A stretch of 64,000 nucleotides of DNA from Eledone cirrhosa (Eukaryota), in assembly GCA_964016885.1 (NCBI GenBank), contig OZ024749.1, positions 36,580,001-36,644,000 of the forward strand, given 5' to 3'. Positions 7,620-45,697 of this stretch are shown one piece after another. The notes beneath the pieces were generated by a model, which saw only the letters and a list, made by a program, of their open reading frames with translations, had not been told where the DNA came from and did no database searches. The position numbers and the translations under genes are program-made. Position 1 is the first letter of the stretch. The number at the start of each line of letters is the position of its first letter.

Positions 7620-10600
7620 ACTGTGGCCATGCTGGAGCACTGCCTACCTTCTACTGGTTTCAGTCATTTGACTGTGGCCATGCTGCAGCACTGCCTACCA
7701 TCTACCGGTTTCAGTCATTTGACTGTGGCCATGCTGCAGCACTGCCTACCTTCTACTGGTTTCAGTCATTTGACTGTGGCCATGCTGCAGCACTGCCTAC
7801 CTTCTACTGGTTTCAGTCATTTGACTGTGGCCATGCTGGAGCACTGCCTAACTTCTACTGGTTTCAGTCATTTGACTGTGGCCATGCTGGAGCACTGCCT
7901 ACCTTCTGCTGGTTTCAGTCATTTGACTGTGGCCATGCTGGAGCACTGCCTACCTTCTACTGGTTTCAGTCATTTGACTGTGGCCATGCTGCAGCACTGC
8001 CTACCTTCTGCTGGTTTCAGTCATTTGACTGTGGCCATGCTGGAGCACTGCCTAACTTCTACTGGTTTCAGTCATTTGACTGTGGCCATGCTGGAGCACT
8101 GCCTACCTTCTACTGGTTTCAGTCATTTGACTGTGGCCAAGCTGGAGCACTGCCTACCTTCTACTGGTTTCAGTCATTTGACTGTGGCCATGCTGCAGCA
8201 CTGCCTACCTTCTACTGGTTTCAGTCATTTGACTGTGGCCATGCTGGAGCACTGCCTACCTTCTACTGGTTTCAGTCATTTGACTGTGGCCATGCTGGAG
8301 CACTGCCTAACTTCTACTGGTTTCAGTCATTTGACTGTGGCCATGCTGGAGCACTGCCTACCTTCTACTGGTTTCAGTCATTTGACTGTGGCCATGCTGG
8401 AGCACTGCCTACCTTCTACTGGTTTCAGTCATTTGACTGTGGCCATGCTGGAGCACTGCCTACCTTCTACTGGTTTCAGTCATTTGACTGTGGCCATGCT
8501 GGAGCACTGCCTACCTTCTACTGGTTTCAGTCATTTGACTGTGGCCATGCTGGAGCACTGCCTACCTTCTACTGGTTTCAGTCATTTGACTGTGGCCATG
8601 CTGGAGCACTGCCTACCTTCTACTGGTTTCAGTCATTTGACTGTGGCCATGCTGGAGCACTGCCTACCTTCTACTGGTTTCAGTCATTTGACTGTGGCCA
8701 TGCTGCAGCACTGCCTACCTTCTACTGGTTTCAGTCATTATACTATGGCCATGCTGGAGCACTGCCTACCTTCTACTGGCTTCAGTCATTTGACTGTGGC
8801 CATGCTGGAGCACTACCTACCTTCTACCGGTTTCAGTCATTTGACTGTGGCCATGCTGGAGCACTGCCTACCTTCTACTGGTTTCAGTCATTTGACTATA
8901 GCCATACTGGAGCACTGCCTACCTTCTACTGGTTTCAGTCATTTGACTGTGGCCATGCTGGAGCACTGCCTACCTTCTACTGGTTTCAGTCATTTGACTG
9001 TGGCCATGCGGCAGCACTGCCTACCTTCTACTGGTTTCAGTCATTTGACTGTGGCCATGCTGGAGTACTGCCTACCTTCTACTGGTTTCAGTCATTTGAC
9101 TGTGGCCATGCTGGAGTACTGCCTACCTTCTACTGGTTTCAGTCATTTGACTGTGGCCATGCTGGAGTACTGCCTACCTTCTACTGGTTTCAGTCATTTG
9201 ACTGTGGCCATGCGGCAGCACTGCCTAACTTCTACTGGTTTCAGTCATTTGACTGTGGCCATGCTGGAGCACTGCCTACCTTCTACTGGTTTCAGTCATT
9301 TGACTTTGGCCATGCTGGAGTACTGCCTACCTTCTACTGGTTTCAGTCATTTGACTGTGGCCATGCGGCAGCACTGCCTAACTTCTACTGGTTTCAGTCA
9401 TTTGACTGTGGCCATGCTGGAGCACTGCCTAACTTCTACTGGTTTCAGTCATTTGACTGTGGCCATGCTGGAGCACTGCCTACCTTCTACTGGTTTCAGT
9501 CATTTGACTTTGGCCATGCTGGAGTACTGCCTACCTTCTACTGGTTTCAGTCATTTGACTGTGGCCATGCGGCAGCACTGCCTAACTTCTACTGGTTTCA
9601 GTCATTTGACTGTGGCCATGCTGGAGCACTGCCTACCTACTGGTTTCAGTCATTTGACTGTGGCCATGCGGCAGCACTGCCTACCTTCTACTGGTTTCAG
9701 TCATTTGACTGTGGCCATGCTGGAGCACTGCCTAACTTCTACTGGTTTCAGTCATTTGACTGTGGCCATGCTGGAGCACTGCCTACCTTCTGCTGGTTTC
9801 AGTCATTTGACTGTGGCCATGCTGGAGCACTGCCTAACTTCTACTGGTTTTAGTCATTTGACTGTGGCCATGCTGGAGCACTGCCTACCTTCTACTGGTT
9901 TCAGTCATTTGACTGTGGCCATGCTGGAGCACTGCCTACCTTCTACTGGCTTCAGTCATTTGACTGTGGCCATGCTGGAGCACTGCCTACCTTCTACTGG
10001 TTTCAGTCATTTGACTGTGGCCATGCTGGAGCACTGCCTACCTTCTACTGGTTTCAGTCATTTGACTGTGGCCATGCTGGAGCACTGCCTAACTTCTACT
10101 GGTTTCAGTCATTTGACTGTGGCCATGCTGGAGCACTGCCTACCTTCTACTGGTTTCAGTCATTTGACTGTGGCCATGCTGGAGCACTACCAACCTTCTA
10201 CTGTTTTCAGTCATTTGACTGTGGCCATGCTGGAGCACTGCCTACCTTCTACTGGTTTTAGTCATTTGACTGTGGCCATGCTGGAGCACTGCCTACCTTC
10301 TGCTGGTTTCAGTCATTTGACTGTGGCCATGCTGGAGCACTGACTACCTTCTGCTGGTTTCAGTCATTTGACTGTGGCCATGCTGGAGCACTGCCTACCT
10401 TCTACTGGTTTCAGTCATTTGACTGTGGCCATGCTGGAGCACTGCCTACCTTCTGCTGGTTTCAGTCATTTGACTGTGGCCATGCTGGAGCACTGACTAC
10501 CTTCTGCTGGTTTCAGTCATTTGACTGTGGCCATGCTGGAGTACTGCCTACCTTCTACTGGTTTCAGTCATTTGACTGTGGCCATGCTGGAGCACTGCCT

Positions 10601-12270
10601 ACCTTCTGCTGGTTTCAGTCATTTGACTGTGGCCATGCTGGAGCACTGCCTACCTTCTGCTGGTTTCAGTCATTTGACTGTGGCCATGCTGGAGCACTGC
10701 CTACCTTCTGCTGGTTTCAGTCATTTGACTGTGGCCATGCTGGAGCACTGACTACCTTCTACTGGTTTCAGTCATTTGACTGTGGCCATGCTGGAGCACT
10801 GCCTACCTTCTGCTGGTTTCAGTCATTTGACTGTGGCCATGCTGGAGCACTGCCTAACTTCTACTGGTTTCAGTCATTTGACTGTGGCCATGCTGGAGCA
10901 CTACCAACCTTCTACTGTTTTCAGTCATTTGACTGTGGCCATGCTGGAGCACTGCCTACCTTCTACTGGTTTTAGTCATTTGACTGTGGCCATGCTGGAG
11001 CACTGCCTACCTTCTACTGGCTTCAGTCATTTGACTGTGGCCATGCTGGAGCACTGCCTACCTTCTACTGGTTTCAGTCATTTGACTGTGGCCATGCTGG
11101 AGCACTACCAACCTTCTACTGTTTTCAGTCATTTGACTGTGGCCATGCTGGAGCACTGCCTACCTTCTACTGGTTTCAGTCATTTGACTGTGGCCATGCT
11201 GGAGCACTGCCTACCTTCTGCTGGTTTCAGTCATTTGACTGTGGCCATGCTGGAGCACTGCCTACCTTCTACTGGTTTCAGTCATTTGACTGTGGCCATG
11301 CTGGAGCACTGCCTACCTTCTGCTGGTTTCAGTCATTTGACTGTGGCCATGCTGGAGCACTGCCTACCTTCTGCTGGTTTCAGTCATTTGACTGTGGCCA
11401 TGCTGGAGCACTGCCTACCTTCTACTGGTTTCAGTCATTTGACTGTGGCCATGCTGGAGCACTGCCTACCTTCTGCTGGTTTCAGTCATTTGACTGTGGC
11501 CATGCTGGAGCACTGCCTACCTTCTGCTGGTTTCAGTCATTTGACTGTGGCCATGCTGGAGCACTGCCTACCTTCTGCTGGTTTCAGTCATTTGACTGTG
11601 GCCATGCTGGAGCACTGCCTACCTTCTACTGGTTTCAGTCATTTGACTGGCCATGCTGGAGCACTGCCTACCTTCTACTGGTTTCAGTCATTTGACTGTG
11701 GCCATGCTGGAGCACTGCCTACCTTCTACTGGTTTCAGTCATTTGACTGTGGCCATGCTGGAGCACTACCTACCTTCTACTGGTTTCAGTCATTTGACTG
11801 TGGCCATTCTGGAGCACTGCCTACCTTCTACTGGTTTCAGTCATTTGACTGTGGCCATGCTGGAGCACTACCTAACTTCTACTGGTTTCAGTCATTTGAC
11901 TGTGGCCATGCTGGAGCACTGCCTACCTTCTACTGGTTTCAGTCATTTGACTGTGGCCATGCTGGAGCACTACCTACCTTCTACTGGTTTCAGTCATTTG
12001 ACTGTGGCCATGCTGGAGCACTGCCTACCTTCTACTGGTTTCAGTCATTTGACTGTGGCCATGCTGGAGTACTACCTACCTTCTACTGGTTTCAGTCATT
12101 TGACTGTGGCCATGCTGGAGTACTGCCTACCTTCTACTGGTTTCAGTCATTTGACTGTGACCATGCTGGAGCACTGCCTACCTTCTACTGGTTTCAGTCA
12201 TTTGACTGTGGCCATGCTGGAGCACTGCCTACCTTCTACTGGTTTCAGTCATTTGACTGTGGCCATGCTG
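7620..12270. repeat. 51-bp minisatellite, ~91 copies
   Basis: Unit actgtggccatgctggagcactgcctaccttctactggtttcagtcatttg. Confidence 0.97.
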
Positions 12271-18925: not shown

Positions 18926-19492
18926 CAACACATATATACATATATATATATATATATCATGTTTACATTCCATCTAACTAACCAACTAGACTGTCCTTCA
19001 CTGTCCTCCATTTTGAGCTCCTACTTCTCCAGTTGTCACACGTACACACATACACACGTGTGCATGTGTAATTTATGTCATGAACTACATCTCTTGACAG
19101 TGTGTATGTATATATATCATCTTGGTTAAGAGAGTGGGACTGGCTTTGTGCAGTGCCTTTGCTCACTATAAAAGCTTCACGGCACAGGCATTGCTTTATA
19201 TCTGAAGATCTCTCTGCACTTGTCGTCACATGGTACCATGGGCCCAGCACTATGTGTCAATAATTGTCACAAGTGTAGTGTTTGTACCAGAGTTTTCAAG
19301 TCGTTGGCTGGACTAAAAAGTCACACACGTTCAGCGCATCGGTAGGGGTTCTCCTACATGGATATAAAGTAGAGGCCGTACTCGAAAAACGAGTTGGCAG
19401 CCACCATATATATATGTATGGGGGTTGTATCAGTGTGTGTGTGTAATATATGTGTAGTTGGTTAGATTATCAATATTAGCATTATTGGGGCA

Positions 19493-19619
19493 CCCACTGA
19501 TGAATTATAGGAGCCCACTTGAATATATATCTATTGATGGTATACAAGCTCCTACATAAATTGGTATAATTTAACCCAAATTGTAGGAATCCTATAATGA
19601 AACGAGACGTCCGTCTGGG
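19493..19619 (+). ncRNA. type I hammerhead ribozyme motif with large branched loop II
   Basis: ccca-CTGATGA(19497-19503)-attatagga...tcctataat-GAAA(19599-19602)-cgagacgtccg-TC|tggg. GUC cleavage triplet at 19613-19615; stems I, II and III all pair. Confidence 0.8.
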
Positions 19620-19804
19620 AAGAGATATATTCGATATGTCTCATATGAAATAATACAGCCAATTTTCCACGCAATACTTTTAGTTAGCACCCCGAACGCA
19701 TAATTGGGAATATAATCACTTATTTCCTAATGTTTGTTGAGTGAGTTGGAATTTGGCCGGAGTATCGCTAAAAAGCTTTCTCCGATATTGTATTTATTTA
19801 TTTA

Positions 19805-19836
<32 letters not shown>

Positions 19837-19838
19837 AT

Positions 19839-20174
19839 ATATATAAGATCAAAAGATGGTTAAATGAGTTCCATGTATTTTATTATGCGCATTTCAAAAA
19901 CAAATATCATCATGCAATAACATTTGTGTTTTCATCAGATAAAATAGGAGGACATGATATGAAGATTAAAAACACTTGTGGATAGTGCAGTTTTAAATCA
20001 ACATATCATTTGTTGATTTAAAACTGCACTATCTACAAGTGTTTTTAACCTTCATATCATGTCCTCCTATTTTATCTGATGAAAACACAAATGTTATTGC
20101 ATGATGATATTTGTTTTTGAAATGCGCATAATAAAATACATGGAACTCATTTAACCATCTTTTGATCTTATATA
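19839..20174. repeat. near-perfect ~165-bp-arm palindrome (7-nt loop) of a hammerhead-bearing element
   Basis: Arms 19839-20003 and 20011-20174 are reverse complements with two differences seen. Followed by tail ctacaataaaactcacctcctaca; flanked by (TA)n. Confidence 0.95.
20068..20138 (+). ncRNA. minimal type I hammerhead motif with palindromic loop III (mirror copy on - strand at 19876-19946)
   Basis: tattttat-CTGATGA-16-bp stem II-GAAA-tgcgca-TA|ataaaata. Perfect 8-bp stem I; TGCGCA palindrome. Confidence 0.8.
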
Positions 20175-20211
20175 TTATGTATACTCCAGTACTACAATAA
20201 AACTCACCTCC

Positions 20212-20255
<44 letters not shown>

Positions 20256-20327
20256 TATTGAAGTTTCTGTTGAAAATTGAAAAAGTCAGAGTAATGAAGA
20301 GTGCTCTATGTAAGTTACAGAGCTAAA

Positions 20328-20454
20328 TATTTAATGTATAATAAACAATACAGTATTGCTTTGTCTGATGAACGAATGCGGACGTGTCTTGTATTCATCT
20401 TATTTGGGAAACCTCTGGTAATGAGGTAATTATACTGTATTGTTTATTATACAT

Positions 20455-20460
<6 letters not shown>
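20328..20460 (+). ncRNA. type I hammerhead motif with ~37-bp stem I (stem II degenerate)
   Basis: CTGATGA 20365-20371, GAAA 20408-20411, cc-tct-gg-TA| (GUA 20418-20420). 20328-20364 pairs with 20421-20460. Confidence 0.65.
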
Positions 20461-20488
<28 letters not shown>

Positions 20489-20674
20489 GAAGTTCTATTT
20501 AAATTGTTGGGATACAATGGGTTATTTAAATCTACTGTGATTTTAAAATATCCGAAACTAATTTACATAATAGTATAAATAAATTTATAACCCCACTATC
20601 CGGGAGCTTCCAACAGAAATGGTCGCATTCTTTAAGGTTATGTCAATATTTATTTATAAAACTGCTCTATATTA

Positions 20675-20739
20675 TATTTTATCTGATGAAAGCACACCAT
20701 AATTTAACTTGGTGTCCTTGAAATATCTATAATGAAATA
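20675..20739 (+). ncRNA. minimal type I hammerhead motif (family shared with 45632-45697)
   Basis: tattttat-CTGATGA(20683)-aagcacacca...tggtgtcctt-GAAA(20720)-tatcta-TA|atgaaata. Lies in a ~290-bp element (20486-20778) between (TA)n tracts. Confidence 0.7.
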
Positions 20740-20802
20740 AATATGGTTTTATAAATATAGTTTCCATTTGTTAATATATCATATATATATATATATATAT
20801 TG

Positions 20803-20834
<32 letters not shown>

Positions 20835-20874
20835 GGGGTTGTATCAGTGTGTGTGTAATATATATATATATATC

Positions 20875-20945
<71 letters not shown>

Positions 20946-21925
20946 GGGGTTGTATCAGTGTGTGTGTAATATATATATATATATATATAATCTCTTGGTG
21001 TTGTAATCAGTAGCTGTCTCATGTCTAGATATTATAGTCTGTCCACCATCACTCTCCCTTCACCCACATTTCAGAGTTTACTGGGTAGGGGATATTGTGG
21101 TGTCACCCTCACTCAGTTCACCCTGTTAACTGGGTAAACTAGATATCCTAGTCTAATCCCCTTGTCTAATCTAGATATCACAGTCTAACCCTACCCTTGT
21201 ACTCTAATATCTAGATATCCTAGTCTAACCCCACCCCTCAGTTCGGGGGGGGGGGGGGGGGGCAGAGTTTACTGAGGGGACATATCTTATTGTTATAGCT
21301 TTATGTCCTAGAAATAGCTAAATGACCACCACAACAGCAACTTGGGTTTTTCAAAGATATTTAGATATCAGAACATCCTTTAAATAAGAACAATTTACCT
21401 TTGTTTAATTTTGACACATAAGCAAAGATTTTCAAGGCATCCAATTAAAGGCCCCAGTATTTGTTCTGGCCCTCTGTGCTCTGAGTTCAAATCCTACCCA
21501 GTTCCTATCTGGCCAGAATTCTCTCACTTTTATCTGTTCAAACCAGCCGTAACCAGCCCCTCACTCTGATGTTAAGGCATTGTCCTCAAAATGAATAACA
21601 GCAAAATCTCATAGATTCAATATTATGTGAAATAATTGAGGTAAAAACCTTTACTGTGAAAAATACACTAGAATATATAGAGTAATGTAAATGCTAAAGG
21701 GTTAATCTTTCAAGGTCAATAAATCAAGTACCAGTTTACTACTGTGGCTGAGTCTTCCTCTCTCTATATTTCTCACTTTCTCTTTTGTTAGTGTATTATG
21801 TACAAGGTTTTCTGCTATTCATTCCAATACTCATAGTTCTGATTTCCAGTTTCTTCTCTTTTTCTTTTGAAGAAATCAGCTGAGTTCCAACAACCTGGAG
21901 GGGGATGGGTTTCACCAGGTTTAAC

Positions 21926-24466: not shown

Positions 24467-24569
24467 AATACAATCGGTTTGAAACCAAAATTCAAGATTT
24501 ACGGGAACAAATCATGAACACAAGTACTGGCAGTTTACGAACAACACAGAAACGAACTCTATATGTCAG
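24467..24569 (+). CDS. dlg1: discs large (DLG1/SAP97-like MAGUK) exon: PDZ3-SH3 linker and start of SH3
   Basis: ctacag|...|gtaagg boundaries; 103 nt, phase 1 to 2. Translates (E)[33 protein letters not shown](R), matching the DLG-family YSRFEAKIHDLREQMMN...SLRTSQKRSLYVR segment. Confidence 0.96.
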
Positions 24570-30217: not shown

Positions 30218-33135
30218 TAATGATGATAATAATGAAAATATTGTGTACAGTGCTCAGGTGCACTACAACTCATCAAAAGTGTATGTATAGTACATAGGGT
30301 AATGTACAAACGTCAGGAAAATATATATCATGAGTCATGATATACACGTGTGCATGTGTATGGAAGGGGGGACATCAGGTCTAGTTTTGGAGAATTTCGC
30401 GAAGCATGAGGGTTTTAAAGGATGCAGTGTCTCAACAGCTAACAACTGATGCAGGTAGTTTGTTCCATGGAGGTTTTAAAGGATGCAGTGTCTCGACAGC
30501 TAACAACTGATGCAGGTAGTTTGTTCCATGGAGGTTTTAAAGGATGCAGTGTCTCGACAGCTAACAACTGATGCAGGTAGTTTGTTCCATGGAGGTTTTA
30601 AAGGATGCAGTGTCTCGACAGCTAACAACTGATGCAGGTAGTTTGTTCCATGGAGGTTTTAAAGGATGCAGTGTCTCGACAGCTAACAACTGATGCAGGT
30701 AGTTTGTTCCATGGAGGTTTTAAAGGATGCAGTGTCTCGACAGCTAACAACTGATGCAGGTAGTTTGTTCCATGGAGGTTTTAAAGGATGCAGTGTCTTG
30801 ACAGCTAACAACTGATGCAGGTAGTTTGTTCCATGGAGGTTTTAAGGGATGCAGTGTCTCGACAGCTAACAACTGATGCAGGTAGTTTGTTCCATGGAGG
30901 TTTTAAAGGATGCAGTGTCTCGACAGCTAACAACTGATGCAGGTAGTTTGTTCCATGGAGGTTTTAAAGGATGCAGTGTCTCGACAGCTAACAACTGATG
31001 CAGGTAGTTTGTTCCATGGAGGTTTTAAAGGATGCAGTGCCTCGACAGCTAACAACTGATGCAGGTAGTTTGTTCCATGGAGGTTTTAGAGGATGCAGTG
31101 TCTCGACAGCTAACAACTGATGCAAGTAGTTTGTTCCATGGAGGTTTTAAAGGATGCAGTGTCTCGGCAGCTAACAACTGACGCAGGCAGTTTGTTCCAT
31201 GGAGGTTTTAAAGGATGCAGTGTCTCGACAGCTAACAACTGATGCAGGTAGTTTGTTCCATGGAGGTTTTAAAGGATGCAGTGTCTCGACAGCTAACAAC
31301 TGATGCAGGTAGTTTGTTCCATGGAGGTTTTAGAGGATGCAGTGTCTCGACAGCTAACAACTGACGCAGGCAGTTTGTTCCATGGAGGTTTTAAAGGATG
31401 CAGTGTCTCGACAGCTAACAACTGATGCAGGTAGTTTGTTCCATGGAGGTTTTAAAGGATGCAGTGTCTCGACAGCTAACAACTGATGCAGGTAGTTTGT
31501 TCCATGGAGGTTTTAAAGGATGCAGTGCCTCGACAGCTAACAACTGATGCAGGTAGTTTGTTCCATGGAGGTTTTAAAGGATGCAGTGTCTCGACAGCTA
31601 ACAACTGATGCAGGTAGTTTGTTCCATGGAGGTTTTAAAGGATGCAGTGTCTCGACAGCTAACAACTGATGCAGGTAGTTTGTTCCATGGAGGTTTTAAA
31701 GGATGCAGTGTCTCGACAGCTAACAACTGATGCAGGTAGTTTGTTCCATGGAGGTTTTAAAGGATGCAGTGTCTCGACAGCTAACAACTGATGCAGGTAG
31801 TTTGTTCCATGGAGGTTTTAAAGGATGCAGTGCCTCGACAGCTAACAACTGATGCAGGTAGTTTGTTCCATGGAGGTTTTAAAGGATGCAGTGCCTCGAC
31901 AGCTAACAACTGATGCAGGTAGTTTGTTCCATGGAGGTTTTAAAGGATGCAGTACCTCGACAGCTAACAACTGATGCAGGTAGTTTGTTCCATGGAGGTT
32001 TTAAAGGATGCAGTGTCTCGACAGCTAACGACTGATGTAGGGAGTTTGTTCCATGGAGGTTTTAGAGGATGCAGTGTCTCGACAGCTAACAAATGATGCA
32101 GGTAGTTTGTTCCATGGAGGTTTTAAAGGATGCAATGTCTCGACAGCTAACAACTGATGCAGGTAGTTTGTTCCATGGAGGTTTTAAAGGATGCATGTCT
32201 CGACAGCTAACAACTGACGCAGGCAGTTTGTTCCATGGAGGTTTTAAAGGATGCATGTCTCGACAGCTAACAACTGACGCAGGCAGTTTGTTCCATGGAG
32301 GTTTTAAAGGATGCAGTGTCTCGACAGCTAACGACTGATGTAGGGAGTTTGTTCCATGGAGGTTTTAGAGGATGCAGTGTCTCGACAGCTAACAAATGAT
32401 GCAGGTAGTTTGTTCCATGGAGGTTTTAAAGGATGCAATGTCTCGACAGCTAACAACTGATGCAGGTAGTTTGTTCCATGGAGGTTTTAAAGGATGCATG
32501 TCTCGACAGCTAACAACTGACGCAGGCAGTTTGTTCCATGGAGGTTTTAAAGGATGCATGTCTCGACAGCTAACAACTGACGCAGGCAGTTTGTTCCATG
32601 GAGGTTTTAAAGGATGCAGTGCCTCGGCAGCTAACAACTGATGCAGGTAGTTTGTTCCATGGAGGTTTTAAATGATGCAGTGTCTTGACAGCTAACAACT
32701 GACGCAGGTAGTTTGCTCCATGGAGGTTTTAAAGGATGCAGTGTCTTGACAGCTAACAACTGACGCAGGTAGTTTGTTCCATGGAGGTTTTAAAGGATGC
32801 AGTGTCTCGACAGCTAACAACTGACGCAGGTAGTTTGTTCCATGGAGGTTTTAAAGGATGCAGTGTCTCGGCAGCTAACAACTGACACAGGTAGTTTGCT
32901 CCATGCTTCAGCAACTCTAAGCGTGAAAAAATGTTTCCGAAAGTCATGGGAGCTGTGCTGTTTTCTGACTTTGTAGGCATGTCCACGTGTGTTAGACACA
33001 TGGAGATCAAAAAGGTGCTCAGGGTTGTTGTTGGCGAGATGGTTAAGACCCATACATCCACCCCTTTATACCACCCAACGGCAATGTCTTCCAATATCTT
33101 TCTATTGATTCCAGTCTCAACAGTTTACTGATTCC
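30218..33135 (-). mobile_element. CR1-clade LINE 3' fragment containing an internally amplified 61-bp minisatellite
   Basis: - strand NTRGHAYKVRKQHSSHDFRKHFFTLRVAEAWSKLPVSVVSCRDTASFK (CR1 ORF2 C-terminal signature). 3' UTR and (att)n tail at 30218-30405. Confidence 0.85.
30405..32904. repeat. 61-bp minisatellite, ~41 copies
   Basis: Unit catggaggttttaaaggatgcagtgtctcgacagctaacaactgatgcaggtagtttgttc. Confidence 0.97.
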
Positions 33136-33579: not shown

Positions 33580-35335
33580 ACTAGCTAAACCTACATAGGT
33601 GTGAGCTGTAACAACCACCTGATATGACTGGGTCTCCTATCGTTAAAACACCCAAGAAACCTCCTATGAGATAAAAACCTTATAGGAGGCTACTTAAACC
33701 AACATAGGTGAAAGTTGTAATGGCTTCTTGATAGGAATAGGGGCCTATATTATTAACACACCCAAGAAGACTCCTATGAAATACAACCTTGTAGGAGGCT
33801 AGCTAAACCTACAAAAGTACGAGCTGTAACATGATAGGAGCTGGGCTCCTATCGTTAAAACATCCAAGAAACCTTCTATGAGTGAGCTGTAACAACACAA
33901 CAGGACTTGGGCCCCTATTGTTAAAACATCCAAGAAACCTATGAAATAAAACCTTATAAGAGGCTAGTTAAACCTACATAGTTATGAGCTGTTACAACAT
34001 GATTAGACTAGGGGCCCTTATCATTAAATACCCAAGAAACCTCCTATAGGAGGCCAGCTAAACCTACATAGTTATGAGCTATTACAACATGATTAGACTG
34101 GGGGCCCTTATCATTAAATACCCAAGAAACCTCCTATAGGAGGCCAGCAAAACCTACATAGTTATGAGCTGTTACAACATGATTAGACTGGGGTCCCTTA
34201 TCATTAAATACCCAAGAAACCTCCTATAGGAGGCCAGCAAAACCTACATAGTTATGAGCTGTTACAACATGATTAGACTGGGGTCCCTTATCATTAAATA
34301 CCCAAGAAACCTCCTATAGGAGGCCAGCAAAACCTACATAGTTATGAGCTGTTACAACATGATTAGACTGGGGTCCCTTATCATTAAATACCCAAGAAAC
34401 CTCCTATAGGAGGCCAGCAAAACCTACATAGTTATGAGCTGTTACAACATGATTAGACTGGGGTCCCTTATCATTAAATACCCAAGAAACCTCCTATAGG
34501 AGGCCAGCAAAACCTACATAGTTATGAGCTGTTACAACATGATTAGACTGGGGTCCCTTATCATTAAATACCCAAGAAACCTCCTATAGGAGGCCAGCAA
34601 AACCTACATAGTTATGAGCTGTTACAACATGATTAGACTGGGGGCCCTTATCATTAAATACCCAAGAAACCTCCTATAGGAGGCCAGCAAAACCTACATA
34701 GTTATGAGCTGTTACAACATGATTAGACTGGGGGCCCTTATCATTAAATACCCAAGAAACCTCCTATAGGAGGCCAGCAAAACCTACATAGTTATGAGCT
34801 GTTACAACATGATTAGACTGGGGTCCCTTATCATTAAATACCCAAGAAACCTCCTATAGGAGGCCAGCAAAACCTACATAGTTATGAGCTGTTACAACAT
34901 GATTAGACTGGGGTCCCTTATCATTAAATGCCCAAGAAACCTCCTATAGGAGGCCAGCTAAACCTACATAGTTATGAACTGTTACAACATGATTAGACTG
35001 GGGGCTCTTATCATTAAATACCCAAGAAACCTCCTATAGGAGGCCAGCAAAACCTACATAGTTATGAGCTGTTACAACATGATTAGACTGGGGTCCCTTA
35101 TCATTAAATGCCCAAGAAACCTCCTATAGGAGGCCAGCTAAACCTACATAGTTATGAACTGTTACAACATGATTAGACTGGGGGCTCTTATCATTAAATA
35201 CCCAAGAAACCTCCTATAGGAGGCCAGCAAAACCTACATAGTTATGAGCTGTTACAACATGATTGAACTGGGGGCCCTTATCATTAAATACCCAAGAAAC
35301 CTCCTATAGGAGGCCAGCAAAACCTACATAGGTGT
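33580..35335. repeat. 90-bp minisatellite (~15 copies from ~33960) preceded by longer diverged units
   Basis: Unit aggccagcaaaacctacatagttatgagctgttacaacatgattagactggggtcccttatcattaaatacccaagaaacctcctatagg. Confidence 0.95.
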
Positions 35336-38029
35336 GAGCCTTAAATAATTTAATTTTCAAATATCTTTCACGTTTAGTCTGATGCACTAATAACCCTACA
35401 TCAATCTGCCATCTAGTTTGTAATAAAAGACAGTGGCACGAGGAAGGTGGAGGAATGGAAGACATATTGAAATGTAGTTCGGGATGGGGGAGGGAGGGGT
35501 TGTTTGTTTGTTTTCAATATTTTCTAGACACCAGTGGCAATAAATCACATTGTCAGGAAGTTGGAGAATATTTCATCTGGTGGCAGTGGGCAGTGTGTGG
35601 GGGGGTGTGGGGGAAGGGGAGTCTCTAAACTATCATGGCACCAATAACTAAATATTGGAAATGGTCGATAATCAATAATAGTGGTGATGTGTGGTGGTGG
35701 TGGTGGTGGTGGTGGTGATGTTGTTGATGGTAGTTGTGTAGTACTTGGTCCACTGGCACAACCGGATTTGATTGACTACTACTACTACTACTATTACCAC
35801 CACCACTACTATCACCACCACCACCACTACTACTAATTCCACCATCATTACTATTACTATTACTACTACTAATTACTACCATCACCACTACTTCTATTAC
35901 TGCTTTCTCTACTACTTTCATTCCTCTAGGGGTTGATAAAATATGATACCAGTCATGTACTAGGGTATATTTAGGATATAAAACACATGTATGTATACTA
36001 TGACTAACTTTGTCTTTTATTTTTCTGCGCTCGTCCTATACTGGGGTAGATTTAATATTCATCTTAGATTTGTATGTGAATTATAATAGAAGACTAAGGC
36101 AAACTTTAATATTCTTATGGAGCTGATAAACATATGGTACCAGTTATGTACTGAGTGTCATCTAATCAACTGTTGCTGCTTTCAATATGTGCCAAGAAAG
36201 GTTTTGTTTTAACCCTTCCATTGCCATATTTCTAGTGAAAGATACTGCCTATGATTTTCAAATAATTTTGAAAATATTCAAGAAGTTGCAGGGATTTAGT
36301 TATATAACTAACTTTCTCATTATTATTAATATTTAACTGTTGCAAATAATTTTGAAAATATTAGAATTTTGAAGGGTTTAGTAACACAGGTAAAATTCCA
36401 TTATAATGAATACCATCATAACAAATGTTTCAGTTTAACAAAATTTATGCTCAATCTCATTATAAAAAATTTTTTCGTTACAATAAATTTATTTTTATAC
36501 CCTGTGAATTTCATTGTATACCTAACTTTCACATTATATTTACTATTTAGCTATTTCAAATAATTAAGGATTTTGAGGGGTTTAGTAATATAATTAACTT
36601 TCTCGTTATTCAGCTGGTGTTTGGAGCATAACATAACAATGGTCCTTACTTAACAACAGGTCTTCAATAAAATTATGATGAAAAGTTTTTAGATAAATAT
36701 AAAACAGACATTTCATGATGATAATGATAAAGACTTTAAAATAAATAGCTTTTTATCCTCGAACCAGGGCCAGTTTCAGGCTGTTTGGCATGAAAAGTGT
36801 TATTAATCCATCCCAACAAACAATAGTTACTCCTTCACATGGTGTGTGATATTTTATACACACCATTCACTGTGTGTATGGTCCCCCCCCCCCCCCCCCA
36901 CCTCTTCCTCCTGTTGGACATAAAAGCTGTATATTTTAATAATGCCAGTCTTGAAATGAAATATTAAATTATTCCATACTGTTTCCATGGTAACTGGCTA
37001 GTTTTTCCATTGTCTTCATTTTATTTTAATCATCTCTTAATAACATCATTTCCATATAGCTTGTGTATTGTGTGTGTGTCTATGCATGGATGCATGGACT
37101 GTATGTGTATATTTGTGTGTGTGTGTATGTGGATATATATATATGTGTGTGTGTGTGTGTATGTGGACAGTATATTGACTGTGTCTATGTGCAAGTATTT
37201 TGTATTCACTGTGTCTATGTATGTATGTGTCTGAAGTAAACATGGCCAGTATTTGGTGTGCATTGTGTGTGTGTGTGTGTGTGTATGTGTACCAAATGTA
37301 CTAATTGTAGTCACATTGTATGTGTGTGTGTGTACCAATGTGCTGATGGTAATACATATGTGCATTGTGTGTGTGTACCAAATGTACTAATTGTAGTCAC
37401 ATTGTATATGTGTGTGTGTACCAAATATACTGATGGTAGTACATGTGTGTGTATGTGTGTACCAAATATACTGATGGTAGTACATATGTGTGTGTGTGTG
37501 TGTACCAAATATACTGATGGTAGTACATATGTGTGTGTGTGTACCAAATATACTGATGGTAGTACCTGTCTGTGTACCAAATATACTGATGGTAGTACAT
37601 GTCTGTGTACCAATGTACTGATGGTAATACATACTAGTGTGTATGTGAAAACTGATACCATATTGTTTTACAATAGTCTCCCCTCAATGACTTCAACATC
37701 TGGCAGTGTTTACAATAATACCAAGTCATTGAGTACTCAATACTGCACTGTACTGTGTTGTACTACACTACACTGTACTACACTACACTACACTGCACTG
37801 CACTACACTACACTACACTACACTACACTACACTGCACTACACTGCACTGCACTACACTACACTACATTGCACTACACTACACTGCACTGTACTGCACTA
37901 CACTATACTATACTACACTACACTACACGTAGAGTGTAAACATTGTTATTTATTATAGAAACGGCTTCTACAGGACTAGAACTGTTTCATTCATTGAACT
38001 TACAATTGCTCTAGGCTTGTAATGTTATA

Positions 38030-44009: not shown

Positions 44010-44080
44010 TATTTTATTATGCGCATTTCAAAAACAAATATCATCATGAGATGATATTTCCGTTTTCATCAGATAAAATA
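44010..44080 (-). ncRNA. minimal hammerhead motif, second copy of the 19839-20174 family (single arm, element ~43975-44280)
   Basis: Reverse strand reads tattttat-CTGATGA-stem II-GAAA-tgcgca-TA|ataaaata. Same downstream tail ctacaataaaactcacctcctaca at ~44257-44280. Confidence 0.75.
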
Positions 44081-44276
44081 GGGATACATGATATGAAGGT
44101 TAAAAAACACTTGTGAATAGTGAAGTTTTAAATCAACATATGAAAAATAATTTAAGATTGATGTGTGATATTGGGAAAAAAAGAGGGGGAGGGGGTTGGA
44201 AAGGGTAAGGAAGAGGAGGAGATGAGAGTAAAGAATGGTGGGGGAGGAGTATTGTGCTACAATAAAACTCACCTCC

Positions 44277-44781: not shown

Positions 44782-44958
44782 AGCTTTGTTTGACTATGAT
44801 CCCACTAAGGACAGTGGGTTGCCCAGTAAAGGTTTAGCATTTAAATACGGTGACATTTTACACGTCACTAATGCCAGTGATGATGAGTGGTGGCAAGCCA
44901 AACGTATCACCCCAGAAGGGGAAGAAGAAGGAATGGGGATCATCCCAAGTAAAAGACG
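44782..44958 (+). CDS. dlg1: dlg1 exon: SH3 domain
   Basis: ttccag|...|gtaaaa; 177 nt, phase 2 to 2, in frame with the previous exon. (R)[58 protein letters not shown](R) is the canonical DLG SH3. Confidence 0.97.
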
Positions 44959-45631: not shown

Positions 45632-45697
45632 TATTTTGTCTGATGAAGGCATAACATATTGTTAATATGATATCCCCGAAATATATATAATGAAATA
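45632..45697 (+). ncRNA. minimal hammerhead motif (second copy of the 20675 family; element ~45529-45738)
   Basis: tattttgt-CTGATGA(45640)-aggcataacatatt gtt aatatgatatcccc-GAAA(45678)-tatata-TA|atgaaata. Flanks are homologous to 20486-20778. Confidence 0.65.

Follow-up and report, generated by a model that had tools for sequence, protein, structure and literature searches.

The window, meaning the whole 64,000-nt stretch of Eledone cirrhosa DNA that was analysed, lies within the discs-large gene (dlg), which we identified by protein comparison of the exons and which runs on the + strand. The preceding exon, ending PDZ3, stops 2,485 nt 5' of the window, and the exon frames join with no exon missing; the intron between them spans 26,951 nt. 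Four sense-strand hammerhead motifs, in modules referred to as M1 to M4, locate in this intron 3.7-5.0 kb 5' of the next exon. The original prediction had put such a cluster about 3.7 kb upstream of a coding exon in a dlg intron, and the two exons found in the window bear it out. The layout is as follows.

19406-19451, no strand: TA-rich minisatellite unit, with further units at ~20820-20863 and ~20931-20974
19457-19790, + strand: M1, 5'-truncated copy of a tandem, non-coding, retrozyme-like element, 334 of ~700 bp
19493-19619, + strand: hammerhead 1, with a 4-bp stem I, a branched stem II, a 3-bp stem III, a palindromic loop and GUC at 19615
19791-19845, no strand: (TATT)n/(TA)n tract
19831-20006, - strand: inverted arm of M2, with the minus-strand hammerhead 19876-19946
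20008-20214, + strand: M2, 5'-truncated pLTR end assigned to Hydra-type family B, with hammerhead 2 at 20068-20138 (AUA at 20130)
20215-20253, no strand: (TA)19 tract
20254-20356, - strand: family C inverted tail (20254-20327) and inverted 3' end (20328-20356), creating the apparent long stem I of M3
20357-20457, + strand: M3, 5'-truncated pLTR end assigned to Hydra-type family C, with hammerhead 3 at 20355-20430 (GUA at 20420)
20458-20485, no strand: (TA)14 tract
20486-20517, - strand: inverted 32-nt tail end of family A
20515-20780, + strand: M4, 5'-truncated pLTR end assigned to Hydra-type family A, with hammerhead 4 at 20675-20739 (AUA at 20731)
24467-24569, + strand: dlg exon of the PDZ3-SH3 linker, matching DLG4 393-431 (E 2e-6), the first exon 3' of the cluster
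44782-44958, + strand: dlg exon of the SH3 domain, matching DLG1 SH3 (E 1.5e-28)

Because three minisatellite units flank the cluster, the insertions appear to have split one minisatellite. The (TA)n tracts described between the modules are present at the three listed positions. The two arms of M2 are 176 nt long, 97% identical and 1 nt apart, so the minus-strand hammerhead, which had been counted as a fifth ribozyme, is the inverted arm of M2 and no separate ribozyme. The tail of M2 (~20179-20214) lacks 50 nt. The 30-bp outer stem of M3 is an inverted element 3' end, preceded by an inverted tail, and its length differs among copies. On the left, the cluster adjoins a very high-copy repeat (19111-19409) that ends in a microsatellite tail; this repeat is tandem at ~684 bp in locus L012, and no hammerhead was found in it. 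The dlg introns also contain long homogeneous minisatellite arrays at 7620-12270 (51 bp x 91), 30411-32905 (61 bp x 41) and 33955-35339 (90 bp x 15).

All four sense motifs and the minus-strand mirror copy show the type I order of CUGANGA, GAAA and UH. The CUGAUGA cores start at 19497 (M1), 20076 (M2), 20365 (M3) and 20683 (M4) on the + strand and at 19938 on the - strand, and the cleavage triplets end at 19615 (GUC), 20130 (AUA), 20420 (GUA) and 20731 (AUA), so the four sense cores are where they had been reported. Under a strict descriptor (stem I at least 4 bp, stem II at least 3 bp), four of the five motifs pass. Three core-closing helices form in M1, M2 and M4, as had been claimed for every motif, whereas M3 fails through an A.G at the base of stem II, a feature common to its family. 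The stems had also been described as unrelated, but M2 and M4 share 21 of 22 nt across stem I and core. Loop III homoduplexes are predicted at -14.7 kcal/mol for M1, -10.5 for M2, -5.1 for M3 and +1.4 for the M4 copy in the window, compared with -2.2 and -3.2 for the family forms of M4. The M4 loop III change at 20727, present in 1 of 38 other copies, is predicted to abolish self-pairing. The palindromic loop III, named at the outset as a hallmark of such elements, is present in M1 and M2 and not in the other two.

The motifs share with earlier-described type I hammerheads the type I topology, a weak stem III, in M1 and M2 a palindromic loop III, and copies that are mostly solo and truncated; paired copies on opposite strands, 100-700 bp from each other, are already known there. 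In contrast, the G10.1-C11.1 pair reported as highly conserved in those hammerheads is absent here, being A-U in M1, M2 and M4 and A.G in M3. By eye, G-C occurs at this position in two M1 relatives.

Could such motifs be chance matches in AT-rich repetitive DNA? The 7-mer core by itself is not enriched in the window (23 observed, 21 expected), and the check with Rfam models suggested at the outset recovered no hammerhead family, with 0 matches at the gathering threshold and none among the 44 matches at E<=10. The Rfam miRNA matches were dismissed as hairpin look-alikes of the M2 palindrome. Against chance, dinucleotide shuffles of 19401-20800 produced even one full motif in just 1 of 2000, and block-shuffling the window gave one motif in 1 of 40 runs, where five are observed. 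We also sampled the genome with sixty evenly spaced 10-kb stretches (600 kb, L137-L196; ~40 of them from the four largest contigs), in which 38 hammerhead motifs were present, a single array accounting for 11; the stretches contained 0 in backwards reading. The position of the motifs within pLTRs, described below, and the compensatory changes in their stems likewise contradict a chance origin, which is already refuted and to which we give practically no weight.

For these stem changes, relatives were picked by homology, giving an M1 clan of 5 sequences and an M2/M4 clan of 20 sequences; the latter left out 5 of 20 M4 and 3 of 8 M2 representatives, mostly truncated, chimeric or near-duplicate. 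Covariation across copies, whose absence had been named as evidence against hammerheads, is found: in the M1 clan, 7 of the 32 pairs change at both positions, and in the M2/M4 clan 5 of the 17 do so, in samples that are small and related and with one shuffle measure per set not significant. Slid controls showed far fewer compensatory changes than the true stems, and among the M1 relatives loop III remains palindromic with differing letters. The compensatory changes together with the retained palindrome indicate that the hammerhead folds were selected in the elements. By these comparisons, the motifs are identified as real hammerhead-ribozyme sequence motifs.

The genome-wide copy search proposed with the original prediction found every module at high copy. 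Exact matches to 25-28-nt motifs number at least 828 (M1), 2,422 (M2), 1,960 (M3) and 4,457 (M4), and backwards-read controls of all four gave 0. Each module family has a fixed 3' end, and the modules travel independently, with any given other module present in 1-3 of the 19-24 loci per family. Relative to the column majority of close copies, the window copy differs by 0.3% for M1, 0.6-1.2% for the M2 arms, 1.6% for M4 and 5-7% for M3; within the motif, M1 has 0 differences from its family and M3 has 6. These divergences point to M3 as the likely oldest insertion, with M1, M2 and M4 likely recent.

Sequence comparison identifies M2, M3 and M4 as 5'-truncated pLTR ends of protein-coding, Hydra-type Penelope-like retrotransposons (PLEs). 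The links to Penelope reverse transcriptase (RT) and endonuclease ORFs that had been anticipated are found in longer copies of all three families. M4 corresponds to the pLTR of family A: locus L096 comprises pLTR-ORF-pLTR plus an inverted truncated copy, L117 contains an unbroken 743-aa frame, and of the 30 loci retrieved with the ORF N-terminus, most have a pLTR resembling M4. M2 corresponds to the pLTR of family B, in which arm, tail and ORF start follow one another in L202 and L203 and the ORF end precedes an arm in L206 and L208; family B is ~45% identical to family A. M3 corresponds to the pLTR of family C, found as pLTR-ORF-pLTR copies in L211, L212 and L214. Hammerhead-to-hammerhead units measure 4,091 nt in family A and 3,661, 3,595 and 2,549 nt in family C. 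One ORF encodes the RT and then a C-terminal GIY-YIG-type endonuclease, with the frames of B and C broken but collinear. These domains were assigned by motif, and Pfam gave no match for 4 related PLE ORF fragments. DKT, CxCX5C, CxxC and CxH are present in all three families, and the RWK-type motif reads RWR in A, RW/KW-I in B and RWK in C.

The Hydra-type parents also have the hammerhead in the pLTR, partial tandems, an inverted 5'-truncated copy and a tail. The 3' end has a TA run no more than 30 nt away in 38 of 77 M2, 23 of 60 M4 and 2 of 7 M3 exact-anchor copies, against a background of 8%, and many exact-anchor copies lacking a nearby TA run continue into the tail. In a first look, one 251-aa ORF N-terminus gave 20,894 candidates, which resembles a burst of Hydra-type PLEs; many of the 150 candidates scored lie in open frames of 740-816 aa. 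Other PLE-like ORF fragments occur beside insertions (L016:2044-3345, L223, L225:5317-6501, L230:5085-5999).

According to Craig et al. (2021; PMC8557442), the Hydra clade, which includes Hydra-1_Obim of Octopus bimaculoides, inserts into (TA)n, carries hammerheads and is generally <3 kb. Families A-C share with it the single ORF for RT and C-terminal endonuclease, the DKT, RW[K/R], CxCX5C, CxxC and CxH motifs, the pLTR hammerhead, the (TA)n insertion, the inverted 5'-truncated copies and the tails; the stem II base mismatch of M3 recurs in several of the published Hydra hammerheads (PMC8557442). They differ from that description in that the units of A and C are mostly >3 kb (2.5-4.1 kb), the tails reach ~75-90 nt instead of 30-40 nt and copy numbers are very high (PMC8557442). 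By eye, these families and their hammerheads are also unlike the one Octopus Hydra hammerhead in its File S2. We tentatively place families A-C in the Hydra clade by these motifs and by their by-eye likeness to published Hydra proteins, Hydra-1_Obim among them. A Naiad origin was dropped in view of the C-terminal endonuclease and the motif DKT.

M1 is a different kind of element. Its family forms direct ~700-bp tandems in 10 of 10 multi-copy loci, and 13 same-strand neighbours at 592-708 or 1,407 nt occur among the first 100 matches listed. The longest Met-started frame is 35 aa in sense and 56 aa in antisense, GC content is 34%, and the monomer is predicted to be strongly folded (z -5.5). No coding parent was found in the 10 tandem loci or among weaker matches. 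M1 is a truncated unit of a non-coding tandem family that fits non-LTR retrozymes. Like the metazoan non-LTR retrozymes described by Cervera and de la Pena (2020; PMC7229834) and in the preprint of Li et al. (10.64898/2026.07.22.740005), the family consists of direct tandems with one type I hammerhead per unit, lacks an ORF, and has a palindromic loop III and a strongly folded monomer. Its ~700-bp unit exceeds the usual 150-450 bp but falls within the 51-972 bp of the preprint (10.64898/2026.07.22.740005). It further departs from the published retrozymes (PMC7229834) in the branched 90-nt insertion in stem II, and no parent PLE was found for it. The proposal that independent, ribozyme-carrying mobile families of Penelope or retrozyme kind had entered one TA microsatellite is thus upheld, while their supposed non-coding nature applies to M1 and not to M2, M3 or M4. 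Further tandem retrozyme-like arrays with one hammerhead per unit were noticed at L162:281-3381 (11 units of ~310 bp) and L165:6638-7694 (3 units of 528 bp).

The mirror arms of M2 are informative about how such copies form. Arms at the same locus have 12 variants in common where chance would give 1.4 (0 of 20,000 permutations, 20 loci), and the spacing of 25 inverted M2 pairs ranges from 103 to 3,039 nt. Since the variants are locus-specific and the arm spacing varies, the inversion was likely made at each insertion; gene conversion between the arms might also account for the shared variants. Movement of the whole palindrome in the manner of a MITE was ruled out by the locus-specific shared variants and the varying arm length. 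We notice an inversion hot spot at 19997-20017, a short self-complementary AT-rich stretch at which 8 of the 25 pairs turn, with spacings of 156-162 nt.

Different families cluster about five-fold above chance. Among 279 loci of the four families on C1:0-155 Mb, 5 cross-family pairs lie within 2 kb, compared with 0.9-1.4 expected, and the excess tapers off by 20 kb. In 91 seeded loci, 25 had two or more families within 1.5 kb, namely 22 with two and 3 with three, one of the latter being an overlapping parse. Four families together are the tail of this ordinary nesting, and if the drop from two-family to three-family loci is extrapolated, hundreds of clusters with four families would be expected genome-wide. 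As a counterpoint, none of the 91 seeded loci reaches the four families found here in 1.3 kb, and the main copies all lie in the sense direction of dlg, an arrangement expected about 1 time in 8 by chance, since M2 faces both ways. The shared orientation, and the way in which the modules abut through TA tracts, might suggest one composite element moving as a unit. However, the M1-M2-M3-M4 combination occurs in 0 of 91 other loci, each module has a separate parent and the divergences differ, which leaves the composite a probability close to nil.

The best explanation is four separate insertions, namely the ends of three Hydra-type PLEs and one ~700-bp tandem non-coding element, which probably entered in succession through TA-targeted retrotransposition. 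The element endonuclease would nick (TA)n DNA, and reverse transcription would begin at the pLTR end or the tail and halt early, with fold-back creating the mirror arm; inverted arms and tails are the known signature of PLE insertion. Every insertion would leave fresh TA tracts as new targets, so that families nest. The hammerheads would serve the elements, in tandem precursor processing or circle making, as dimers or with an element protein, and those in the intron would be passengers in dlg. We hold this whole account, nested TA-targeted insertions whose ribozymes are predicted to cut dlg pre-mRNA weakly or never, to be highly probable.

The predicted cost of the hammerhead fold in its context is 104 kcal/mol for M2, 12 for M1, 5.5 for M4 and 4.2 for M3. 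A 176-bp hairpin, whose antisense arm is transcribed first, is predicted to enclose M2, and the high cost is that of opening it. For M3, the inversion lengthens stem I and could aid folding. No stable mixed stem III is predicted among M2, M3 and M4, and each sense motif is single; the strongest mixed stem III, between M1 and M3, reaches -4.1 kcal/mol, and the stems I of these two do not match. Minimal PLE hammerheads are reported to be inactive alone and weak as dimers (PMC4209133), and the hammerhead of the anole PLE is described as acting with the help of a protein and as dispensable in vitro, with no RNA-seq ends mapping to its site (PMC11167929). Inactivity of the cluster in dlg RNA is a prediction from folding.

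Two readings would nevertheless give the cluster some activity. Cuts within introns can be tolerated by splicing. In the first reading, M1 alone, or perhaps M3 as well, might cleave a small fraction of transcripts as a monomer, neutrally, since splicing would span the cut intron. As to origin, this agrees with the best explanation. Of the four motifs, M1 alone is an intact candidate for cleavage, and it may cleave in part: its fold costs 3 kcal/mol in isolation, and invertebrate retrozymes with a 2-3-bp stem III are reported to cleave as monomers, at ~0.1 per min in mussel and ~0.8 per min in coral (PMC7229834). However, the flanks raise the cost to 11-12 kcal/mol, the upstream hairpin competes for stem I, and the 10.1-11.1 pair is A-U rather than G-C; we regard monomer cleavage as possible but unlikely. 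The hairpin in question (19486-19496, 4 bp, just 5' of the M1 core) can tie up the 5' strand of stem I and is not clearly kept in distant relatives.

In the other reading, co-option would have made the cluster cut dlg pre-mRNA co-transcriptionally and so tune dlg output, in the manner reported for the intronic Cpeb3 ribozyme. The four sense motifs upstream of the exon, the intact M1 motif and the precedent itself would favour it; like the Cpeb3 ribozyme (PMC10919898), the dlg motifs are of a self-cleaving type and lie within an intron, a few kb away from an exon, in a gene related to synapses. The Cpeb3 motif, however, is conserved and single-copy with measured activity (PMC10919898), whereas the dlg motifs, as known from sequence, belong to young repeats and show no sign of selection in this intron. 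The insertions are indistinguishable from other copies of their families, M4 and M3 carry damaging-looking changes in the motif, and M2 is predicted to be sequestered. The dlg region holds 7 hammerhead motifs in 84 kb, near the average of ~5 expected from 38 per 600 kb. We therefore consider co-option very improbable. The original suggestion of a self-cleavage cluster meaningful for a synaptic gene is not supported, as the copies resemble their families, folding disfavours cleavage and multi-family clusters are common. As modelled, the motifs likely do little or nothing to dlg, in keeping with nested passenger insertions. Two additional dlg-intron hammerheads were observed, a family B copy at 44010-44080 on the - strand, with its tail nearby at 44253-44270, and an older family A-like sense motif at 45632-45697 on the + strand, 0.7 kb after the SH3 exon.

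It is also conceivable, though we would put little faith in it, that abundant retrozyme or PLE RNAs acting as trans dimer partners, or a PLE protein cofactor, let solo intronic hammerheads cut host pre-mRNAs. If so, transposon activity would lead to cuts at inherited sites in host pre-mRNAs, that of dlg included, and M1, whose palindromic stem III is strong, would be the cut site 4.9 kb 5' of the exon.

Extrapolating from the sixty sampled stretches, we estimate 1.3-1.9 x 10^5 type I hammerheads in this 3-Gb genome. The motifs in the sample belong to many different families, several with a mismatch at the stem II base. The axolotl genome is much larger than 3 Gb. The load estimated here is about that of axolotl, for which 126,247 hammerheads were counted (PMC7229834). 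No description of hammerhead clusters in cephalopod introns was found in the literature searched, an incomplete set, and the families may already be named. What we describe are new families of two known kinds, Hydra-type PLE and retrozyme-like, nested by TA targeting.

For dlg itself, the cluster is probably without importance. The genome, on the other hand, combines hammerheads missed by Rfam with Hydra-type PLE families that are young, high in copy number and have unbroken ORFs, and with a ~700-nt retrozyme-like family. It is thus suited to testing the function of PLE hammerheads and whether solo intronic copies cut host RNA.
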